Assembly: GCA_045646605.1 (NCBI GenBank)
Contig: JAZRLA010000005.1
Coordinates: forward strand, 11,519 to 75,518
Reading direction: 5' to 3'
Length of the DNA stretch: 64,000 nucleotides
Origin: Candidatus Enterousia sp.
GTDB lineage: Bacteria > Pseudomonadota > Alphaproteobacteria > Rs-D84
Of this stretch, positions 32,321-42,751 are shown in pieces; the first letter of the stretch is position 1, and each line of letters starts with the position of its first letter. The position numbers were made by a program, and so were the translations under genes. The notes under the pieces are model-generated. The model had not been told where the DNA came from. It saw only the letters and a list, made by a program, of their open reading frames with translations, and made no database searches.

Positions 32321-33988
32321 ATGAAAAGAACCAATTGTTTGTTGACGTTATCGGTTGCGGTATTGTGCACCGCAGGGCGCGCGTATTCGGCCGGCGTGGC
32401 ACCGGCAATATTGTCAAACTATGGCGAAATTCAATCGGTAAAAAATTACTCGTCTAATCCATTTTGGAATAAAAACAGCCCATATAACCAAAACTTTCCA
32501 AAGCCAATCTATGCAACTGGTGCGGATTTGAATACCGGCGATTGCAATCGAATTGTGGAAAATTTGGTAACATCGTATTGCGCCGAACATAACTATTGTT
32601 ATGGTTTGCGAATCGCGGATGTTCGCCCAACGATAATGGTTCAATTGTCACAATTACCGGGACATAATTTTGCAACATCTTGCGGTGGATATATCGATTC
32701 CGCGTTCGACAAATTTCAAAAAGACTACGGCAATACGTCCACGGTGAATTTACCAAAACCGGCATCGCAACCAACAAATATTGAAATTGCAAATCCGTTT
32801 GCACCAAAACAAACGGCGGTGCAAAAGGCCATTGCCGACCGCACCGCGGAACTTGAAAAATTACAGTCAATAACAACGCCAACCGCCGGTGTGCATGCGG
32901 AATATTTTCCAAAAACAACCGCGGATTTATCATTCACCGACCGCATCGCAAATACCGCCGCGGGGTATGAGCCGTACAAAGATAAAGAATCATACAAAAA
33001 ACCAAATTTCCTTGGCGAAGATGAAGAATTCTTTAATCGTCTAAAAGCGCAAAACTTTGAAAAGTTCTGTGAACGCCGCCCGGACGATAAAGATTGCGAA
33101 GCAAAATATTGTAAAGAGCACCCAACGGATCCAAGGTGCAAGAAAAAAGATCCCAATAACCCGGACCCCGATCCGACCCCAGATCCGAACCAGGATCCTG
33201 TTGTCAACGTTACTTGCCAACCGTCAATGCCAGAAGACACGCCGGATTGTCTATCTAAATTAACAAATATCATATCTCTTAATGCAAAAGAAACTATAAA
33301 TGATATTGCGAAAGATTCCACACGTCTCACCACAATAGGAAATGCAATTCTTAAATCATGTATTACCCCAGGAATAACAAATCACACATTATCCGCGTTT
33401 AATGAATGGTTACATAAACACGATAGCATACCAATAACCATTGGAACACAAGTCTGCTTTTTTAATGCGGAAACAGTATTTAATTACGTAAATTTTCCGA
33501 CTTCGGTTTTGTTTTCAAAATCCCCTAATCTTAAACCAGGCGACAGCGTACAAACGTTCAACGGTGGCTATGTCACAACTGACAAATGTTCTGACCAGTC
33601 TATTGGTGGACATAGTGATCATAAAACAACAGTGCACTTAGCTGCAAATGCAGTAAACTTTCCGCACAATTGCGAAAACGGCATCACGTATTTTGTGGAT
33701 TATCCTGTTGGCAATGCAAACCGTGTATTTCCAGGACTTTTGTTAGAAAGTTGTGCTTCTTTCTTTGGTCAAGAACATCTAATCAGAATTCTGAATTATA
33801 AAACTGCACTAACTCTTGTGCGTACATTTGTAGACAATCTTAACGATACACAACATAACAAACACTGTGCCAACCAGGGATTAAATGTGTACCTTGTAAA
33901 ACAACCTGATGTTGAATATACCAGAGTAAGACACGGCAATAAAGTTAACACATTAACCATTGTCACAAATCCATACAATATTCCATAA
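32321..33988 (+). CDS. Hypothetical secreted protein (555 aa)
   Basis: Signal peptide MKRTNCLLTLSVAVLCTAGRAYSA and a central Pro/Asp-rich linker (DPNNPDPDPTPDPNQDP). No recognisable family. Confidence 0.75.
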   Translation: MKRTNCLLTLSVAVLCTAGRAYSAGVAPAILSNYGEIQSVKNYSSNPFWNKNSPYNQNFPKPIYATGADLNTGDCNRIVENLVTSYCAEHNYCYGLRIADVRPTIMVQLSQLPGHNFATSCGGYIDSAFDKFQKDYGNTSTVNLPKPASQPTNIEIANPFAPKQTAVQKAIADRTAELEKLQSITTPTAGVHAEYFPKTTADLSFTDRIANTAAGYEPYKDKESYKKPNFLGEDEEFFNRLKAQNFEKFCERRPDDKDCEAKYCKEHPTDPRCKKKDPNNPDPDPTPDPNQDPVVNVTCQPSMPEDTPDCLSKLTNIISLNAKETINDIAKDSTRLTTIGNAILKSCITPGITNHTLSAFNEWLHKHDSIPITIGTQVCFFNAETVFNYVNFPTSVLFSKSPNLKPGDSVQTFNGGYVTTDKCSDQSIGGHSDHKTTVHLAANAVNFPHNCENGITYFVDYPVGNANRVFPGLLLESCASFFGQEHLIRILNYKTALTLVRTFVDNLNDTQHNKHCANQGLNVYLVKQPDVEYTRVRHGNKVNTLTIVTNPYNIP

Positions 33989-33998
33989 TACATGCACA

Positions 33999-35969
33999 AT
34001 GATATTAAAAATTCTCTTCTTTCTCCTCCCCCTTTCTGCGTTTGCAGCGGGCGGGGGCATAGAGCAAACCGCCAATTTACTTTCCACAAATGCGCCGGCA
34101 AATACGACATGCGTGCGTAATGCCTTTGTGAACGCGCTTTATGAAAATGCAGATAAAATTGATGAAACCGCACCGGAATCCGCGGTAAAGCAATGGATTT
34201 ATGACACGATTCAATCCGCCGAAACATTGGGCGATGTTTTAACTTGCCCCGAAATTATGGATGCGGACGAAAACGAAACTATACGATTTTTACCAATACA
34301 ATACACATTTCCGAACGGCCGTGAAATTGTTGTAAATTATGAAACCCAGCCAAAGGTTTTAGAGCAACGTTTCATGCTGTCCACAAAAACAGAATTGCCG
34401 ACAAACGACCCAAATCCCGCCGTTTCTGAATTCGATGAAACCGCGACATGGACAAACACCGAACCCGCATGGTATGGAATTATGGTTGTACAATCAGGTG
34501 CACTGCACGATTTTGTTGGCCCCGACAAAAACAATACTGTTTCAATGGAATATATTAACAGTAATATCAACAATCTTTATCCACGCGACATGGATGGCAT
34601 GTGTTCCACGCGTTCGGGAATGACCGCAAAATTGCGGGATTCTATGGTGCATAAAGTTTTGCATGAACACACCGCAAAACATGACGACGACAAAAACAAT
34701 TACTATATCGCCGGCGACATAAACCTGCGTTGGATATCATTCGCAGAAATCGCACTTGATGTTGCCCTTACGGTGGCAAGTTTCGGCACATTCGCGGCGG
34801 CAACCGGTGGTATAAAAATGGCACGTGCAATGCGTATAATTGGCAAAATCAGCAAGAACATGAAAACACTTGCCAGGCTTGACAAAGTAAAAGATTATAT
34901 TTCCGCATCCGTAAAGGTCGCGCGAATGACCAAAGAAATCGACAACATGAATGATATGGCAAAAACAATCAAAACCATCGACAAACTTGAAAAAACACTG
35001 GCCAAAACCGCCAAAGGTTCCACAAAGTATGAAAAAATTGCAAAACAACTTGATGCCGCGCGCAAACTAAAGGCCGACAATATGTGGAAACTGGGCAAAG
35101 CAGGCGAGGGCGTGGATAAAGTCGAAGACCTTGAAAAATTTACAAAAACGATAGAGGAAAACCGCAAACTGATCGACGAAACCGAAAAAACAATGTCTAA
35201 AATGGCGCGGGCGGACAAAAATGTTGCGGAATACGCGAAACAATCCAAAGAACTTGAAAAAGTAATAAAATACGCACGGGAATTAAAGTCATACAAAAAG
35301 GCGCGCACCGGAAATATGGTAAGCCGCGGATGGCAAGCGGCAAAAAATACCGGCAAAAGCATCAAAGCCGCGAACACCGGCGGAAAAATGCTTGATAACG
35401 CCGCCAAGGTTGCAACTAAAGGCGCCAAAACCGCCGCAAAAGTTGAAAAAGGATTGGCCAAAGGCGGAACCGAAGCCGCCCGCCAGGGCATAAAATCGGG
35501 CAGGGCGCGCGATTGGCTGTTTCACTCAACGATGCGTAATTTCGGCCGCATCACGAAAATCGGCGAAGGACTTGCCGTGTTGCACTTTGTGCTTGGATTA
35601 CTTGGTGATTTCTATGATTGGACAAACCCATCGACCGATGAATTTACAAACGGACTAAACATGAAACCGCTGTTACTGCTGTCCGCGGACGATATCGAAG
35701 GCCAAGATAATATCGTAAACTATGGCATGTGGCTAATGTGGTCGGGCGATTCATCTGTTCCCGAAGACGATGACGCCGCATACCTCCAAGCAATGGATTT
35801 CGCACAAAAGTTTTATCAAGACTTGGTCGAAACCCAGGAAGCCGAAAACCGTCACGCATGCGATGTTGATATCTATGTTGTACGCCCAATCATCCGTAAC
35901 CCCGGCCGCGAAAGCCAATCACTTTATTGGTTATTCATGAATGATATTCCATGGTCTACCGCCCGATAA
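33999..35969 (+). CDS. Hypothetical membrane protein with a Lys-rich central region (656 aa)
   Basis: The start is taken at MILKILFFLLPLSAFAAGGG, 10 nt after the upstream stop codon. There are hydrophobic segments at WISFAEIALDVALTVASFGTFAAATGGI and GEGLAVLHFVLGLLGDFY, with a K/A/E-rich stretch of about 230 aa between them. Confidence 0.75.
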   Translation: MILKILFFLLPLSAFAAGGGIEQTANLLSTNAPANTTCVRNAFVNALYENADKIDETAPESAVKQWIYDTIQSAETLGDVLTCPEIMDADENETIRFLPIQYTFPNGREIVVNYETQPKVLEQRFMLSTKTELPTNDPNPAVSEFDETATWTNTEPAWYGIMVVQSGALHDFVGPDKNNTVSMEYINSNINNLYPRDMDGMCSTRSGMTAKLRDSMVHKVLHEHTAKHDDDKNNYYIAGDINLRWISFAEIALDVALTVASFGTFAAATGGIKMARAMRIIGKISKNMKTLARLDKVKDYISASVKVARMTKEIDNMNDMAKTIKTIDKLEKTLAKTAKGSTKYEKIAKQLDAARKLKADNMWKLGKAGEGVDKVEDLEKFTKTIEENRKLIDETEKTMSKMARADKNVAEYAKQSKELEKVIKYARELKSYKKARTGNMVSRGWQAAKNTGKSIKAANTGGKMLDNAAKVATKGAKTAAKVEKGLAKGGTEAARQGIKSGRARDWLFHSTMRNFGRITKIGEGLAVLHFVLGLLGDFYDWTNPSTDEFTNGLNMKPLLLLSADDIEGQDNIVNYGMWLMWSGDSSVPEDDDAAYLQAMDFAQKFYQDLVETQEAENRHACDVDIYVVRPIIRNPGRESQSLYWLFMNDIPWSTAR

Positions 35970-36042
35970 AAAACCTGTTGTTTTAATTACTAATTTCGTG
36001 TAAAATGAAAGTACAGAAGACAAAAAAGCAAAGGAGGAAAGT

Positions 36043-36360
36043 ATGAAAAAACTTTTCATCGGTTTGGTTGTTGTATTATCAACCGTGGTTTCCGCCCACG
36101 CGTACCAGGTTTTATCTTCACGCGAGCTTGGCAAGGGCGACGCAAAAAATCAAAATGTCGTTGTCAAATGCACAACCGAAATGGGTAAACTTTCGAACCA
36201 AACATGCTCGTTGCGCCGATATGTAAAATGCAATGGCACGGGAATTAAAAAGAAATGTGGCGGATGGCAAGGCTGGCGCGATTTACGCAACCCGGAAAAA
36301 CAATTTTCCGACTGGAAAACCGCCGCAAATGAATGCTGTCGAACAATGGGATTACGATAG
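36043..36360 (+). CDS. Small secreted Cys-rich protein (105 aa)
   Basis: AAAGGAGGAAAG RBS, signal peptide MKKLFIGLVVVLSTVVSAHA, and 6 Cys in the mature part. Confidence 0.65.
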   Translation: MKKLFIGLVVVLSTVVSAHAYQVLSSRELGKGDAKNQNVVVKCTTEMGKLSNQTCSLRRYVKCNGTGIKKKCGGWQGWRDLRNPEKQFSDWKTAANECCRTMGLR

Positions 36361-36367
36361 AAAACAA

Positions 36368-36391
36368 AACGCCGGTTCATCCGGCGTTTTT
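36368..36391. terminator. Bidirectional rho-independent terminator
   Basis: AACGCCGG-TTCAT-CCGGCGTT followed by a T-run, between convergent genes. It overlaps the recombinase stop codon. Confidence 0.7.
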
Positions 36392-36989
36392 AAATTGTAT
36401 TTTCATTGCGCAGGTAATTATAAAGTGTAACTTTGTTAACACGCATAATTCTTGCAATTTCATTTTTACTAATACCTTTATCAATCAACGTATTTATTCT
36501 TTTTTTATTTTTGCTAAGTTTCAATTGTTTTGATTGTGCGCCGATTGGTCGTCCAAGTTTTTTGCCATTTGCCTTTAATCGCGCCAAACTTTCACGCACG
36601 CGTTCTTTTAATAATGACCGCGACAATTCCGCCGACAAACCAAACGCAAACGCCAACACCTTAGATTGTATATCGGTACCCAAACGAAAATTTTCTTTTA
36701 ACGTCCATATCTGACAATCATGTTCAAGACACATCTGTAAAATCCCCATAACCTCTAACAACGACCGCCCAAGACGTGATATTTCCGTTGTAATTAAAAT
36801 ATCCCCAGATTGCAGTTTTTTTAATAATGCGCCCAACTTTCTGTCTTGTAATTTTTTTCCACTTGAAATTTTTTCTTCAACCCAAGAATCAATAACGATA
36901 TTATTTTGTTTTGCGAAATTTTCTATTACAAAATGTTGATTTTCTTCTGTTTGATGTGCGGTTGAAACACGACAGTATCCATAAATCAT
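36390..36989 (-). CDS. Small serine recombinase, resolvase/invertase (Hin/Gin-like) type (199 aa)
   Basis: The start is taken at MIYGYCRVSTAHQTEENQ, which carries the catalytic Ser motif. Also present are ...ILITTEISRLGRSLLEVM and the C-terminal HTH GISKNEIARIMRVNKVTLYNYL. Confidence 0.9.
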   Translation of the reverse strand: MIYGYCRVSTAHQTEENQHFVIENFAKQNNIVIDSWVEEKISSGKKLQDRKLGALLKKLQSGDILITTEISRLGRSLLEVMGILQMCLEHDCQIWTLKENFRLGTDIQSKVLAFAFGLSAELSRSLLKERVRESLARLKANGKKLGRPIGAQSKQLKLSKNKKRINTLIDKGISKNEIARIMRVNKVTLYNYLRNENTI

Positions 36990-37097
36990 GATAAATTCCC
37001 TTTTTGCATTTTTATTATAAAAAAAGGTGCCCGAAAAAAGCATCGGCACCCGTGTTCGAAATGGAATATAGTCGTTTTTTTTCGTGTTTCAAGTGGT

Positions 37098-37233
37098 ACA
37101 AAAAAAACCAAGGTTAAAAATCAACCACTTTTTTAAAAAAATAAAAGATTATTTTTTTTACTAAAAACAATAGATAACACGATTTCCATATACCCCCATA
37201 CCCAAGCGGTTAAAAAACCTTGGTTTTTATACC
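37098..37233. promoter_or_regulatory. Candidate invertible DNA switch bounded by hix-like inverted sites
   Basis: The two sites are ACAAAAAAAACC-AA-GGTTAAAAATCA (37098-37123) and GGTTAAAAAACC-TT-GGTTTTTATACC (37208-37233), in inverted orientation. They share the AAAACC-AA-GGTT core of hixL. See findings. Confidence 0.5.
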
Positions 37234-37297
37234 ATTGAATTGTGCCTTAAAAGGGGGAGGCCTTTTAAGGGTTTAACGTTAAACCAAGGAGAAAAAA

Positions 37298-39223
37298 ATG
37301 TTAAGACAATCAAAAACAACAATCAAAGAATTGTCTGCACAATACCGCAGTGTATTGAAACGAGCATTCTTGGCGGGTGTTATTGCACTTGTAACCGCTA
37401 ATGCTGCACACGCAACAATTACAGCCGAAGATATTGGCACCATTAACGATAGTATCAACATGGCCCAATCCGATGGAAATTATACAACCAGTATGGGTGA
37501 TTATAATGTAGCAACAACCGATTATAGCACCGAAACGGGATATGGTTTATACACATATGACCATGATAATAATCCAGAAACACCTGAAATTGCGTTAACT
37601 ACAAACAATGGTACTGAAACATTAGATGATACAGTATTCACATATACAGATAACACCGGTGCAACAACTAACTTAGATGTTAATTCGACTGGATTTACAA
37701 CAAGTGATTTTACTGGTACAGCTGGAACAATAAATGTTGCCGATGGTACAACCGATTTGACAACATTAGAAGCTAACACAACAACTGTTGGTTTAGGTAA
37801 TTATCAATATATGGCGAACTTTGATAACTCTGGCGATGCGTTAACAGCTTTGACAGCAGATGCACCAGAATTGAGTTCATTCCACAATGATATTACTTTG
37901 ACAACAGGTTCAATCACCGTTAATGGTAATGACGAAGCAAACAAGCCAAGTATTGACCAATATGGTTTTGCTATTACACTGCATGACGATAGCACAGGAA
38001 ACTTTGATTTGGTGTACAATGAACTCACACATTCGTATGATTATAATTATACCGGCGATGTAACCTTGGATGCATCAGACATTGCCAACGCAAGCGCACA
38101 AGTTGCATCACAATCAGCAAATTTGATCGCTGACACAACATTATTCAATGATGCCGTAACAACGAATACAAACAATTATAACGAGACGCTTGCCCATTAT
38201 AATACCGTTCACGGCGTTTACGAATCTGATGCAAATGCACAAAACACGCTAGACACCAATTACGTTAATTACGAAACAAGTTTTGCCGCGGCACAGGCAA
38301 ATCAATACGCCGCCGAACAAAACTTATCAAATGCACAAAACGCTTACGCGGATGATTTAGCGGTATATAATTCAACCGCAACGGCATACAATAATTACAC
38401 AAACTCTTTGGGTCAAAGTATCGACGCAAAAGATGAAGCAGTGTTGGCAAGTGCACAGGATTACGCAGATAGTTTGGCGGATAATTACGATGCGGCCGGT
38501 TCAGCAGACACCGCAGAACAAAATGCAAAAGATTACGCGGATAGTTTGGCGGATAATTACGATGCGGCCGGTTCAGCAGACACTGCAGAACAAAACGCAA
38601 AAGATTACGCAGATAATCAAATTGCATCTGAAGCATTAGCACGTGAATCGGCAGATACCGAACTGCAAACTTTGATTGCCACAGAAGCGAACACACGCGA
38701 AGAAAAAGACATCGCGTTGCAAAGCAATATTGATGCCGAAGCATCCGCACGCGCCGACGAAGACGCGGCTATCCGTTCTGAATTTGCAGATGCCGATGAT
38801 GCGGTTCGCGGTGAATTCGCGGCGGCCGATGCCGATTTGCAAAACGCAATCGATAACGAAGTTGCACGTGCAACCGCCCAAGAACAGGCAATTCGTAACG
38901 ACTTTGCGGCGGGCGACGCGGCAACATTGGCACGGGCAAACGCCTATACCGACCAAAGGGTAGATACGCTTGAAAAGAACGTGTCTGGCGGTGTTGCGGC
39001 GGCAACCGCATTGTCATCGGTTGCGGTGTCCAACGTAAAACGTGGCGAAGTTTCCGTCGGTGCCGGATACGGTTATTACAATGACCAATCCGCCGTTGCG
39101 TTTGGTGCCGCGATGGGGCTTACCGATCGTTGGTCTGTTAACGCGGGTGCCGGTTTGGCAACGGGTGACAAAACCCAGATGTCTTTCCGTGCCGGAACAA
39201 ATTACAAGTTTAAATTGTTCTAA
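37298..39223 (+). CDS. Trimeric autotransporter adhesin (YadA-type membrane anchor)
   Basis: The C-terminus GGVAAATALSSVA...GEVSVGAGYGYYNDQSAVAFGAAMGLTDRWSVNAGAGLATGDKTQMSFRAGTNYKF is a YadA anchor. The stalk is Ala/Asp-rich and coiled, and the N-terminal signal is long. AAGGAG RBS. Confidence 0.9.
   Translation: MLRQSKTTIKELSAQYRSVLKRAFLAGVIALVTANAAHATITAEDIGTINDSINMAQSDGNYTTSMGDYNVATTDYSTETGYGLYTYDHDNNPETPEIALTTNNGTETLDDTVFTYTDNTGATTNLDVNSTGFTTSDFTGTAGTINVADGTTDLTTLEANTTTVGLGNYQYMANFDNSGDALTALTADAPELSSFHNDITLTTGSITVNGNDEANKPSIDQYGFAITLHDDSTGNFDLVYNELTHSYDYNYTGDVTLDASDIANASAQVASQSANLIADTTLFNDAVTTNTNNYNETLAHYNTVHGVYESDANAQNTLDTNYVNYETSFAAAQANQYAAEQNLSNAQNAYADDLAVYNSTATAYNNYTNSLGQSIDAKDEAVLASAQDYADSLADNYDAAGSADTAEQNAKDYADSLADNYDAAGSADTAEQNAKDYADNQIASEALARESADTELQTLIATEANTREEKDIALQSNIDAEASARADEDAAIRSEFADADDAVRGEFAAADADLQNAIDNEVARATAQEQAIRNDFAAGDAATLARANAYTDQRVDTLEKNVSGGVAAATALSSVAVSNVKRGEVSVGAGYGYYNDQSAVAFGAAMGLTDRWSVNAGAGLATGDKTQMSFRAGTNYKFKLF
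38459..38602 (+). repeat. In-frame 72-nt tandem duplication within the adhesin stalk
   Basis: Copies at 38459-38530 and 38531-38602 differ at 3 positions. Each encodes DYADSLADNYDAAGSADTAEQNAK. A third unit starts at 38603 (DYADNQ) and then diverges. Confidence 0.95.
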
Positions 39224-40126: not shown

Positions 40127-40165
40127 TGACCCAATTTTAGATTTTTGATAAAATTATTCACAGAG

Positions 40166-42751
40166 ATGAGTAAAATTCTAATTTTATGCGCAATTGTTGG
40201 TTTATATGCCGGCACGCCCGCGTATTCTGCGGTGCGTGATGGTGTATCTAACACCCGGCCAACGGACACAAATGCGCGCACAACCGCAACGCCGCGCACG
40301 GTCGCACCGCAAAATTCCACCACCAATACCCGCGCCACACGCAATGTCGCCGCACGCGCCGGAACATTAAAAATCAATTCAACACCACGAAATGCCACAA
40401 ATGTCCGTAGCCGCGTCGCCGGTACCGGAAATTCCAATCTATCGCGGCGCATGGTGCAAATTGGTCGCGCCACCATCACCGGCACCCCCAGTAATGACAT
40501 CATGGAAACACGCACTGGGGCGGCATACGCCCAATGCAAAACCGCGTATTTTCAATGCATGGATCAATTTTGTCAGTTAAAAAATGACGATTACCGTCGC
40601 TGTTCTTGCAGTTCACGAATCCATGATTTAATGTCCGTTCGCCAAAACATAATCGATACCAATGGCAAACTTACCGAATTCACGGAAAACCTTGATGCGG
40701 TTGGCCTTACCGCGGCCCAGGCAACGGCGATGCACACCGCATCCGACGGCGAAAACGCACTTACAGCGGACACATCCGCATCCAAGGCATTGCTTACCGC
40801 GATAATGAATTCAATCCGTGGGGGCGACACAACCGTTGGCGGAAAAATGTCTGATTTAAACAGCATAAACCTTTCGTTCGACACAGTGAACATGTTCGGC
40901 CTTACCGACACGGCCCAGGTTATCGCGTCATATAATGGCACGGAACTTTACAACGCGGTGTACCCATCATGCCGCAGTGCGGTGGCCGCCGATTGCAACA
41001 ACGCATCGTTACAACGCGCGGTCACGGCATACCTTATGGCCATCGAACAAGATTGCAATACTGTGCAAACCGCACTTGAATCAAAACAAAAAGATTTGCG
41101 TGCCGCCGTCCGCGAAAGCAGTGCGATGTTGGACCTTGCACGCATTGAAAACCGCAGCAAACATAACGCCGACAACATGGCAACCTGTATCGGGAATGTA
41201 GAGGCCGCCGTCCTTAGCGAAGAAGTTTGCGGTGCGAATTATCATCGGTGTCTTGATAACGGTGAATTCATCGATGTCACAACCGGTGCGCCAATTACCG
41301 GCGTTGTGCGTTTCTATGAATTACAAGATATATTGAAATTTGACAACACCCAAGACGCCGCATTTCAAAAATTGGCGCAAAATCCGGACAACAGCAAATT
41401 TGTGAAAAACTTTGAAAATAAAACCAAAAAATTTGCCACGGATGCCCTTGATAAATGCACCGAAATTGCGGACACTGTTTGGGCGGAATATTTGGACAAA
41501 GCACTACTTGATATATACTATGCCCAAAAAGCCAAGGTTCAAACGATTAAAACCGGTTGTCTCGATTTGATTTCCAGGTGCTATGACGATCGCGAAACGG
41601 CAATAACCGCGGCAATGGCGGAACTTATTGACGGCAAAACTGAAATATCGCTTTTGCCAGATAAAATCGTTCTTACCAAACAAATGTGCAGTAATTATAT
41701 CGAATCTTGCAATAACATGTTCGACAACACAAATATAATTGCGGAATACGTTGATCACCAGGCGAACACCGACACAACCGCCGCGTGTCGCGCCGTCGTA
41801 CAACAATGCTTTGATAGTTTCGGTGGCGCAAATTACGAAAACTTTTATTACCCAAGCAGCGGATTATTCCAAACCGGCATGGTTGATGATTTAGTATCCA
41901 ATCATGGCACATCAGAAACGACAAAACGCATATCCGCCCTTGATTGGTTCACACTTTACGAATACGACGAAAATGGCGAACGAAAACCGGGATATGTTTC
42001 CAAGTGCGCCCAGCGCGTTTCCGAAATTCCAAGTTGCGCGGACAAGGTTGAATCAGTATTCGGTGGCCTGGACGCTGTAATCGCCAACCGCGGCCGGGAT
42101 AATTACGGCCAATACGAATATACAATACCAAGCAGTGCAAACAACGCGTATGCATATGGTTGGACAAAATCGGATGATATCGACCTTATTCCATGGTCAG
42201 ACCCCGATTACAAATTCAAGAATCGCCGCCTGCGTCCGACCGGTGTCGCGACCGAGGTTTATAACCAAATCATCGACAGCCTTACCACACAATGTATGAA
42301 TGTCGAAGGTAAATTTATCGAAGCACAATTTGTAGATCACAATCTATATGGTCCTATATGTATATTAGATTTTTATAGCTTAAATTCCTATGATAGCACT
42401 TATTACGGACTTCATTCAAGTGGCGTAGAAAACATGTGCCCCAAGAATTATATAAACAATATAGACCCTGACTCATGGGGAATATGTTCTTGTTGGGAAA
42501 ACGGCGGTCGCCGGAGTCGAAACGGCGAAAGTCAAAAATGCATGGCAATAATTCCAACTGATAATGGCGGTCAATACGAACCTAGCCCTTGCAGTCGTTC
42601 TGGAACCACCGCCTTCAATACCGATGACGAAACCCCAGGCTTCAACGATTGGTGCAATGCAACAATCAACACCACCACAAATCAAGTATGTCCTATGACA
42701 AATCAAAGTGACGGTTGTTCTGTTCCTGATTGGATACCAGATGGAATATAA
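40166..42751 (+). CDS. Hypothetical secreted Cys-rich protein (861 aa)
   Basis: The ATG at 40166 is preferred over the upstream TTG. It has the signal peptide MSKILILCAIVGLYAGTPAYSA, a Thr/Arg/Asn-rich low-complexity N-terminal region, and many paired Cys (QCKTAYFQCMDQFCQLKNDDYRRCSCS...). No recognisable family. Confidence 0.8.
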   Translation: MSKILILCAIVGLYAGTPAYSAVRDGVSNTRPTDTNARTTATPRTVAPQNSTTNTRATRNVAARAGTLKINSTPRNATNVRSRVAGTGNSNLSRRMVQIGRATITGTPSNDIMETRTGAAYAQCKTAYFQCMDQFCQLKNDDYRRCSCSSRIHDLMSVRQNIIDTNGKLTEFTENLDAVGLTAAQATAMHTASDGENALTADTSASKALLTAIMNSIRGGDTTVGGKMSDLNSINLSFDTVNMFGLTDTAQVIASYNGTELYNAVYPSCRSAVAADCNNASLQRAVTAYLMAIEQDCNTVQTALESKQKDLRAAVRESSAMLDLARIENRSKHNADNMATCIGNVEAAVLSEEVCGANYHRCLDNGEFIDVTTGAPITGVVRFYELQDILKFDNTQDAAFQKLAQNPDNSKFVKNFENKTKKFATDALDKCTEIADTVWAEYLDKALLDIYYAQKAKVQTIKTGCLDLISRCYDDRETAITAAMAELIDGKTEISLLPDKIVLTKQMCSNYIESCNNMFDNTNIIAEYVDHQANTDTTAACRAVVQQCFDSFGGANYENFYYPSSGLFQTGMVDDLVSNHGTSETTKRISALDWFTLYEYDENGERKPGYVSKCAQRVSEIPSCADKVESVFGGLDAVIANRGRDNYGQYEYTIPSSANNAYAYGWTKSDDIDLIPWSDPDYKFKNRRLRPTGVATEVYNQIIDSLTTQCMNVEGKFIEAQFVDHNLYGPICILDFYSLNSYDSTYYGLHSSGVENMCPKNYINNIDPDSWGICSCWENGGRRSRNGESQKCMAIIPTDNGGQYEPSPCSRSGTTAFNTDDETPGFNDWCNATINTTTNQVCPMTNQSDGCSVPDWIPDGI

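Follow-up and report, generated by a model that had tools for sequence, protein, structure and literature searches.

In the 64,000-nucleotide stretch of DNA that we analysed (hereafter the window), a spacer of 308 bp between a serine recombinase gene and an adhesin gene harbors a segment of about 110 bp that is likely to act as a promoter-inversion phase-variation switch, with the promoter split across a recombination site. In the proposed mechanism, an Mpi-like recombinase would bind two inverted hix-like sites of 26 bp, and strand exchange at their central dinucleotides (37110-37111 and 37220-37221) would flip the 110-bp segment. The segment would bring only the upstream half of a promoter, namely a UP-like A/T tract and a TTGATT hexamer directly beside one of its ends. 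With this -35 end turned toward the adhesin, the recombination site would become the 17-nt spacer of a TTGATT-N17-TACCAT promoter (ON), and the adhesin mRNA would start just upstream of its 5' hairpin. In the opposite orientation, which is that of the window, the -35 hexamer would face a flank without a -10 box, leaving the adhesin OFF. As the recombination site lies inside the promoter, the OFF state would have no promoter rather than a misdirected one. The recombinase would be transcribed from its own fixed promoter and attenuated by a terminator in the leader. With somewhat less confidence, we favor a broader reading as well: a natural half-promoter inverton, in which inversion docks a UP and -35 cassette to a fixed -10 box or undocks it again, the cassette occurring in up to nine dispersed copies under a single Mpi-like master invertase. 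The searchable literature yielded no prior description of invertons in Enterousia or Rs-D84, or of split-promoter invertons, which is no proof of novelty.

All coordinates and sequences given in an earlier note on this DNA were verified in the 64-kb window. The presumed invertase, an Mpi-like small serine recombinase, is encoded on the minus strand (36390-36989) and comprises 199 residues, starting with MIYGYCRVSTAHQ. The target gene, on the plus strand (37298-39223), encodes a trimeric autotransporter adhesin of 641 residues, with a C-terminal YadA-like membrane anchor at residues 582 to 638 (YadA_anchor, PF03895, 41.6 bits). Its N-terminus, MLRQSKTTIKELSAQYRSVLKRAFLAG, is common to the target genes of many relatives. 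An exact-protein look-up returned no identical protein on record for the adhesin, and for the recombinase a single one, on a 1.3-kb contig that ends 71 bp upstream of the gene. No Rfam family accounts for the spacer; below threshold, the only matches fell on the 3' terminator of the recombinase gene or were to an sRNA (19.7 bits). The host is placed among Candidatus Enterousia and relatives (order Rs-D84), which are gut Alphaproteobacteria with genomes below 1 Mb.

The recombination site on the recombinase side (site 1, 37098-37123) reads ACAAAAAAAACC-AA-GGTTAAAAATCA, with AA at 37110-37111 as its putative crossover dinucleotide. Site 2, on the adhesin side (37208-37233), reads GGTTAAAAAACC-TT-GGTTTTTATACC, with TT at 37220-37221, and would double as the promoter spacer. 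The arms at 37103-37115 and 37216-37228 are 13 nt long and 100% complementary. The motif AAAACCWWGGTT occurs three times in the 64-kb window, each time within sites 1 and 2, against an expectation of 0.06 (50-fold), and this count was reached in 0 of 100 shuffles. The 16-mer AAAAACCAAGGTTTTT is present exactly on the minus strand at 37213-37228. The earlier note had described the sites as hix-like, recalling a hixL sequence that agrees with Table 3 of PMC3241671; a core of 14-16 bp does resemble hix, but the likeness is limited to that core. Recombinase homologues with as little as about 80% identity have paired AACC-WW-GGTT sites upstream, many relatives' sites use a palindromic TA core, and no AACCWWGGTT pair was found within 450 bp upstream of human-gut homologues with 53-56% identity. 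Genome-wide, the pattern gave 69 matches, 13 of which were attributed to chance (unrelated taxa, location within coding sequence, no partner site). A third, half-site-like sequence, AAACCAAGG, had been pointed out at the adhesin RBS (37281-37289). It is present, but close relatives with the same switch carry AAACAAAAAGG instead, and we rejected it as a switch component for this lack of conservation.

Between the two sites lies the invertible segment (37112-37219, 110 bp between site centres), which is inverted in some relatives. In three loci with a 98%-identical recombinase (L012, L013 and L015), it is reversed relative to the window. The loci L139 and L120 share 99.9% and 99.0% identity in their two 800-bp flanks, and their segment is 98.2% identical and flipped; L106 and L032, as well as L025 and L140, likewise have opposite segment orientations. 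These opposite orientations were seen between assemblies, and in the group closest to the window all assemblies are in one state. Two attributes of a promoter inverton, the bounding inverted repeats and the occurrence of the two orientations, were thus observed. Of 79 copies, 66 have a centre-to-centre site spacing of 106-111 bp. A search of relatives for the same arrangement, as the earlier note had suggested, showed that the order of recombinase, paired sites and surface-protein gene is kept down to about 80% recombinase identity. Near-identical genomes that carry both orientations bear out the proposal of an invertible element of about 110 bp between recombinase and adhesin, and the comparison of relatives supports gating of the adhesin by this element, for which we infer the promoter logic. 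Judged from these comparisons, the 110-bp segment is a real flip-flop switch in nature. A 110-bp flip needs a very tight DNA loop, and we know of no demonstration of such a flip for this enzyme family.

The segment carries the putative -35 hexamer TTGATT on the minus strand (37119-37124), where it points at the recombinase in the window. Upstream of it, on the same strand (37125-37171), are phased A/T-rich tracts (AAAAAAGTGG) and a conserved block, ATTGTTTTTA, which corresponds to plus-strand TAAAAACAAT at 37162-37171. The A/T-rich tract may act as a UP element or as a DNA bend. Among 31 diverged copies, conservation within the segment is strongest in the block TGGTTGAYTTTWAACC, and the -35 box is conserved as TTGAYW, with TTGACA or TTGACT in many relatives. 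The arm that bears the -35 is a poor recombinase half-site, with TTTT versus AAAA in the other three arms, and its conservation therefore needs another explanation. Outside the segment, the candidate fixed -10 hexamer TACCAT (37230-37235, plus strand) lies exactly 17 nt from the -35 after a flip. With flank classes set independently, by the downstream ORF, a TAnnnT hexamer at a spacer of 16-18 is present in 42 of the 45 distinct flanks that precede target genes, 30 times with a spacer of exactly 17. It also occurs in 5 of the 33 flanks that lack a called ORF, but in 0 of 29 recombinase flanks. The promoter variants include some near consensus, such as TTGACA-17-TACCAT, TTGATT-17-TATACT, TTGACT-17-TAAAAT, and TATAAT at spacer 18. 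The hexamers of the window are modest, TTGATT and TACCAT together having 8 of 12 consensus matches, and in L012, a locus in the ON state, the split promoter (8/12) escaped a generic promoter scan with a threshold of 9/12. The earlier note could see no sigma-70 promoter within the segment. Neither promoter scans nor the 31-copy alignment indeed revealed a complete one inside it, but the promoter would not be missing: none would be visible because it is split across site 2, with the -35 inside and the -10 outside. Under this split-promoter model, the orientation of the window would be the OFF state of the adhesin.

TACCAT also belongs to a recombinase-binding arm (ATGGTA...), and its conservation may in part be due to that role. 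A classical inverton, with a complete promoter inside the segment that reads out via site 2 and an outside TAnnnT that is a recombinase-binding arm only, would account for this, and it could draw on the conserved mid-segment block ATTGTTTTTA, which offers a possible -35 (TTGTTT). The outer arm ATGGTAnAAAAACC is moreover found in three of the four half-sites, and TACCA could serve recombinase binding. We nevertheless consider this explanation unlikely, as the 31-sequence alignment holds no conserved TAnnnT 16-18 nt downstream of TTGTTT. The parking-side outer arms hold ACCA, yet none of the 29 has an in-register TAnnnT. The target-side arms vary (TATACT, TAATAT, TAAAAT, TATAAT, TACAAT) and yet retain T1, A2 and T6 amid these changes, and the distance of exactly 17 nt between the -35-like hexamer and the outside TAnnnT hexamer also speaks for a promoter split across the site.

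The recombinase has the catalytic domain of small serine recombinases (PF00239, 108.9 bits, residues 2 to 144), and its YCRVST, a Y-x-R-V-S-T motif that includes the nucleophilic serine, and its SRLGRS, with an RxxR motif, align with YVRVST and DRLGRS of Gin. Its C-terminal region aligns with the Gin DNA-binding domain up to residue 191 and scores 22.9 bits against HTH_7, just below the model cutoff of 23.8. The match to NF009949, 'master DNA invertase Mpi family', is full length (267.6 bits, model positions 1-197 of 203) and misses the cutoff of 272 bits by 4.4 bits. Two relatives, L055 and L061, exceed this cutoff with 301.7 and 317 bits, and the L055 protein shares 55% identity with the window recombinase in an ungapped alignment. 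Gin structures match the recombinase at E 3.6e-10 (4m6f) and 2.3e-9, and the Tn3 resolvase at 1.7e-8; by these matches it is no closer to invertases than to resolvases. The Hin/Gin-type assignment of the earlier note does not hold, since the protein shares 55% identity with proteins above the Mpi cutoff and Gin reaches only E 3.6e-10. On these similarities, the enzyme is best called Mpi-like, as a sister or divergent branch of the Mpi family.

Related genomes contain 3 to 9 switches each, with nine in JAZLAT01, six in JAGHVG01 and five in JAFZXK01; within the 64-kb window, no second switch was found. Among the matched stretches, at most one switch per genome adjoins a recombinase. On the target-side (type-A) flanks, genes for signal-peptide proteins begin 32-110 nt on, and the targets include YadA-anchor adhesins, a Flg_new repeat protein and others. 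In one relative, a switch is located in front of a restriction-modification operon. With several switches far from the one recombinase gene seen in each genome, the enzyme probably serves them in trans, as a master invertase. The earlier note had found it unusual that the recombinase lies outside the segment, which is normal for a trans-acting master invertase with up to nine switches in related genomes. The link between this enzyme and the sites is predicted from sequence, and in some genomes an adhesin switch has no recombinase beside it, as with L142 in JAFZXK01. One could thus suppose that the segment is inverted by a recombinase encoded elsewhere, with the product of the neighbouring gene acting as a resolvase or regulator that only binds the sites. 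We regard this as quite improbable: in more than 40 diverged loci this recombinase directly adjoins one switch, and the sites show the layout of serine invertases, a dyad with a central dinucleotide. Furthermore, the recombinase family has been tied experimentally to multi-promoter inversion in Bacteroides fragilis, where seven capsule promoters have Mpi as their primary recombinase (PMC10403206).

The recombinase gene itself is preceded by a fixed sigma-70-like promoter (37065-37092, minus strand, TTGAAA-16-TATATT) with 10 of 12 consensus matches, which the generic promoter scan detected. In relatives it is kept as TTGAMA-16-TATATA directly outside the recombinase-side arm. The recombinase leader contains an intrinsic-terminator-like hairpin (37026-37051) and a U-run (37019-37025), spanning 37019-37051 on the minus strand. 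The earlier note had counted this hairpin among possible parts of the switch; it folds (37015-37060, -13.2 kcal/mol, z = -2.7) and is terminator-like, with its place in the recombinase leader, downstream of the fixed promoter. At the corresponding place, each of 19 diverged recombinase leaders has a GC hairpin with a folding energy of -7.4 to -21.4 kcal/mol and a T-run after it; in 18 of them the promoter motif lies upstream. When the 19 leaders were folded one by one, the stems diverged in sequence with the structure kept, and the stem of L002 relies on G-U pairs that are possible only in minus-strand RNA. RNAalifold found nothing in 16 recombinase leaders because the hairpins are too unlike in sequence and length to be aligned. 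The leader terminator probably holds invertase levels, and hence switching rates, low.

In the window state, about 30 bp separate the movable -35/UP end from the fixed recombinase promoter downstream of it. Inversion might then chiefly tune the recombinase and not the adhesin, the A/T-rich -35 end altering the strength of the recombinase promoter and giving orientation-dependent switching rates. This is very improbable as the main function, since most switches in related genomes have the same architecture without a neighbouring recombinase, with the target gene on the -10 side. A -10 box is in register in 0/29 cases on the recombinase side, and a terminator follows the recombinase promoter. 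Such tuning could be a secondary effect. Least credible of all is a fortuitous A-tract/CCAAGG match in AT-rich intergenic DNA, or a static operator or res-like site with no inversion in the lineage, as the site motif is 50-fold over chance and confined to this spot in the window, the paired sites are kept in dozens of relatives, and opposite orientations occur with otherwise near-identical flanks, even if all assemblies of the window's closest relatives share one orientation.

On the other side of the switch, the adhesin 5' leader (37245-37284, plus strand) comprises a hairpin at 37245-37270 followed by the palindrome GTTTAACGTTAAAC at 37271-37284. The hairpin, which the earlier note had reported, does fold (37240-37275, -13.9 kcal/mol, z = -2.4). 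In relatives it is kept despite changes on both sides of the stem: CUUAAAAGG/CCUUUUAAG, CUAAAAAGG/CCUUUUUAG, GUAAUC/GAUUAC and GUGAUU/AAUCAC.

The switch proposed here, with its promoter split across the recombination site, is reminiscent of several known systems. Mpi (Ssr2) of B. fragilis belongs to the same small serine recombinase sequence family as the window enzyme. In both cases the recombinase is located outside the segments, and many short promoter switches precede surface-structure genes, with one recombinase seen per genome among the window's relatives. However, the present host (Ca. Enterousia / Rs-D84) belongs to the Alphaproteobacteria and not to the Bacteroidales, its genome is below 1 Mb, and the switches here precede genes for adhesins and secreted proteins instead of polysaccharide operons. 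Their sites are hix-like (AAACC-WW-GGTTT) and the segment, of 106-111 bp, would hold only the -35/UP half, whereas the Mpi repeats are ARACGTWCGT-like and the invertible promoters of Bacteroides lie wholly inside segments of about 170-220 bp. Master serine invertases that flip promoters have been described mainly in Bacteroides; the same enzyme family as Mpi would now be found in a gut lineage of Alphaproteobacteria that is uncultured and has a strongly reduced genome. The fimS element of Escherichia coli with FimB and FimE is likewise an invertible promoter element that precedes an adhesin gene and has its recombinase gene adjacent but outside; fimS-type switches use tyrosine recombinases and a 314-bp element with a complete promoter inside. 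Mycoplasma penetrans mpl (P35 family) has many promoter invertons of about 135 bp, one per surface-lipoprotein gene, in a small genome, and differs in its tyrosine recombinases, the promoter inside the element and unrelated sites. The likeness to Hin/hix, Gin/gix and Cin/cix comprises 26-bp dyad sites, a central 2-bp crossover and an output of phase variation, together with a core, AAACC-AA-GGTTT, that is identical in hixL (PMC3241671, Table 3) and, as with hixR, a single imperfect half-site in each pair of sites. Unlike in the Din family, the segment is about 110 bp and not 1-4 kb, the recombinase gene is outside it, no Fis enhancer is evident, and the recombinase is only distantly related, its Gin match being about equal to its Tn3 resolvase match. 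The outer TTC/GAA triplets of the Din consensus are lacking, the window having ACA/TCA and GGT/ACC, and the promoter of Hin is entirely inside its segment, whereas here it would be split.

If true, the half-promoter inverton reading would give obligate gut Alphaproteobacteria (Ca. Enterousia) with genomes below 1 Mb a combinatorially variable surface. About one switch per 100 kb would represent a large investment in surface variation, and this density hints at close contact with host or other cells. The movable part of about 110 bp, near the DNA bending limit, would be a natural test case for serine recombinases that pair very close sites, and the split-promoter cassette might offer a compact template for synthetic switches.

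A conserved 105-residue neighbour (36043-36360) was considered as an accessory DNA-bending factor and rejected; it bears a signal peptide, is rich in Cys and is missing beside more distant recombinases. The adhesin gene calls are broken in L004, L006, L007 and L011, for which a shufflon or frameshift switch was likewise rejected; the break in L004 is a scaffold gap, marked by consecutive N within the repetitive part that encodes the stalk. For annotation, the proposed switch would explain why the segment alone shows no promoter in either state, and why contigs frequently break at this spot in these genomes.

On the sequences compared, the locus is a real, conserved phase-variation switch, as the earlier note had proposed, and it is unusual in its host lineage, its size and its split-promoter logic. 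No description of this switch was found in the searchable literature. All features reported in that note were found at their positions. The recombinase ORF (36390-36989, minus strand) encodes 199 residues that comprise a resolvase catalytic domain and match HTH_7 only marginally, and is divergent from an adhesin ORF (37298-39223, plus strand) of 641 residues with a YadA-like anchor. Both 26-bp sites, site 1 on the recombinase side (37098-37123) and site 2 on the adhesin side (37208-37233), have exactly the sequence described for them. The motif common to both, AAAACCWWGGTT, occurs three times in the 64 kb, always at these sites, with 0.06 occurrences expected. The stretch AAACCAAGG at 37281-37289, which had been considered a possible part of the switch, is simply the Shine-Dalgarno region, and reads AAACAAAAAGG in close relatives with the same switch.

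That the segment between the sites is an invertible element is borne out by comparing loci among relatives. Proteins 95-99% identical to the recombinase are encoded on many metagenomic contigs with unchanged neighbours; metagenomes with the closest strains include JGI 3300028887, 3300028832 and 3300037512, and ERZ27234816, ERZ1667817 and ERZ1667847. The spacer is collinear with that of the window in eleven loci carrying the P0007 variant of the recombinase and in the related stretch L016. In the related stretches L012, L013 and L015, which carry the 98% identical variant P0006, the sequence between the sites is reverse-complemented and both flanks are unchanged. The cleanest pair, L139 and L120, has flanks that are 99.9% and 99.0% identical (800 bp per side) and a segment that is 98.2% identical and flipped; the same pattern is seen for L106 versus L032 and for L025 versus L140. 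Several contigs (L013-L015, L103, L108 and L129) end in or at the sites, as expected from the behaviour of assemblers at invertible or repeated DNA. Recombinase homologues as distant as about 80% identity have paired sites upstream of them. In 66 of 79 copies the distance between site centres is 106-111 bp, with a second spacing class of 130-134 bp that comes mostly from horse-gut genomes. The two length classes are about two helical turns apart, each lying near a half-integral turn number, and phased A- and T-tracts occur within the segment (37112-37219) and its homologues. The length clustering and the phased tracts suggest that helical phase or curvature limits how the sites can be brought together.

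The label of Hin/Gin-type invertase initially given to the recombinase was too narrow, the best NCBIfam model being that of the Mpi family of master DNA invertases. The protein matches this model over its full length with 267.6 bits, just under the cutoff of 272, which homologues from human-gut metagenomes exceed (301.7 and 317 bits); one of these, encoded in the matched stretch L055, aligns gap-free with the window protein at 55% identity. Solved Gin structures are matched with an E-value of only 3.6e-10, and Tn3 resolvase about equally. The hixL sequence quoted in the earlier note agrees with the published one (PMC3241671 Table 3). The window sites share the core AAACC-AA-GGTTT with the hix sites of the Din family but lack the consensus outer TTC/GAA, and in many relatives both sites have a palindromic TA core in place of AA/TT. 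In kind, the switch is a promoter inverton, and the Mpi-like serine invertase is the enzyme that we infer to invert it.

No promoter had been recognized inside the segment, and no complete one is visible there; an alignment of 31 diverged segment copies indicates that only the -35 half lies inside. The best-conserved block, at one segment end, is AAAAAA-GT-GG-TTGAYT-TTWAACC. Its putative -35 hexamer, TTGATT in the window (37119-37124, minus strand) and TTGACT or TTGACA elsewhere, is preceded by the A-tract, placed as a proximal UP element would be, and followed after 7 nt by the crossover dinucleotide. The outer flanks were classed independently, by the gene encoded beyond them. Of 45 distinct flanks leading to genes other than the recombinase, 42 had TAnnnT at a distance of 16-18 nt to the -35 box (TACCAT, TATACT, TACACT preceded by TG, TACTAT, TAATAT, TAAAAT and TATAAT, for example), 30 of them at exactly 17 nt, versus 0 of 29 flanks leading to the recombinase. 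This distribution points to a split promoter, with the UP element and -35 box inside the segment, the recombination site as spacer and the -10 box outside. The -35 arm is the sole half-site of four that departs from the A-tract pattern, which argues that it is conserved for RNA polymerase and not for the recombinase. In the window, the two hexamers agree with the consensus at only 8 of 12 positions, and TACCAT (37230-37235, plus strand) overlaps a recombinase-binding arm.

Flipping the window segment would give TTGATT-TTTAACCTTGGTTTTTA-TACCAT. In the window orientation, CGGTTA occupies the -35 position, and the adhesin is therefore predicted to be OFF. Its transcript would start about 7 nt past TACCAT (near 37242), just before the leader hairpin at 37245-37270 (-13.9 kcal/mol), which is maintained in relatives by compensatory changes; the predicted start and conserved hairpin fit a 5'-terminal stem-loop.

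On the other side, the leader of the recombinase can be read as a fixed promoter with a terminator downstream. The promoter, TTGAAA-16-TATATT (37092-37065, minus strand), is immediately outside site 1, where relatives have TTGACA-16-TATATA, and downstream lies a hairpin (37051-37026, minus strand) followed by a U-run. All 19 diverged recombinase leaders examined contain a GC-rich hairpin (-7.4 to -21.4 kcal/mol) with a T-run in this position, the stem sequences being unrelated, and 18 of them also contain the promoter motif. Such a terminator would hold invertase expression low, and would also halt transcription leaving the switch when the -35 end faces the recombinase.

The host is placed in the Alphaproteobacteria by GcrA and LpxB, both encoded in the window, and by the names of homologues. 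With the -35 arm plus core as query, a genome-wide scan retrieved 69 stretches, 13 of which were chance matches in unrelated taxa. The other 56 come from Candidatus Enterousia, from MAGs labelled only Alphaproteobacteria or proteobacterium, or from one MAG labelled "bacterium"; where the record title names a source, it is ruminant or horse gut. Enterousia belongs to the order Rs-D84, whose genomes are below 1 Mb (PMC12306168). The window harbors only this one switch, and its relatives carry nine (JAZLAT01), six (JAGHVG01), at least five (CAMVAR01) or five (JAFZXK01), with at most one per genome seen beside a recombinase gene. This arrangement is the one expected of a master invertase and its switch regulon, as for Mpi of Bacteroides fragilis (PMC10403206). 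The signal-peptide proteins encoded on the -10 side are YadA-anchor adhesins with N-termini of two kinds, a Listeria-Bacteroides repeat protein, and Cys-rich proteins that match no Pfam family.

Cassettes of one genome, such as those of JAZLAT01 (L099, L104, L105, L119, L150, L154, L155, L163 and L164), share about 90% identity, and among L096-L164 the flank on the parking side, that of the recombinase, is in some cases repeated along with the cassette. By this likeness and these repeated flanks, the cassette behaves like a dispersed repeat. Some JAFZXK01 switches have TA cores and others AA/TT, a mixture that could limit recombination between different switches.

In one related stretch, L036, a switch of the same design precedes genes for a D12-class N6-adenine DNA methyltransferase and an EcoRI-like nuclease (L036:985-2814, minus strand), a candidate phase-variable type II restriction-modification system. 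Its promoter, TTGATT-17-TACAGT, is in the ON state. The 76%-identical recombinase is located at L036:3001 with the switch about 20-190 bp upstream, and its ribosome-binding site directly abuts the site, without a separate promoter or terminator.

The adhesin stalk contains a tandem duplication (residues ~395-440, AEQNAKDYADSLADNYDAAGSADT twice) and ARE/ADxDAAIRSEFA-type repeats. N-gaps occupy this spot in scaffolds of relatives (e.g. L004:2359-2525), and adhesin length ranges from 551 to 798 residues among strains with near-identical recombinases. Convergent with the recombinase is a conserved 105-residue gene (36043-36360, plus strand), found only in close relatives and in L098, whose product, small and Cys-rich, carries a signal peptide (MKKLFIGLVVVLSTVVSAHA...) and matches no Pfam family. 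A GC hairpin between the two genes (AAAACGCCGGTTCATCCGGCGTTTT, 36352-36413) probably terminates transcription in both directions; on each strand it yields weak sroD matches below threshold. Large ORFs of 555, 669 and 868 residues without Pfam matches flank the locus (32321-35969 and 40145-42751). Synteny of the latter two is kept in relatives at 75-87% identity, and the 868-residue protein is weakly similar to products of genes near other switches (L124, L126). Finally, G+C content is 37% at 36001-38000 versus about 45% elsewhere in the window. This drop and the 55% identity to human-gut Mpi-family proteins are consistent with the recombinase having been acquired horizontally long ago, or with nothing more than AT-rich regulatory DNA.
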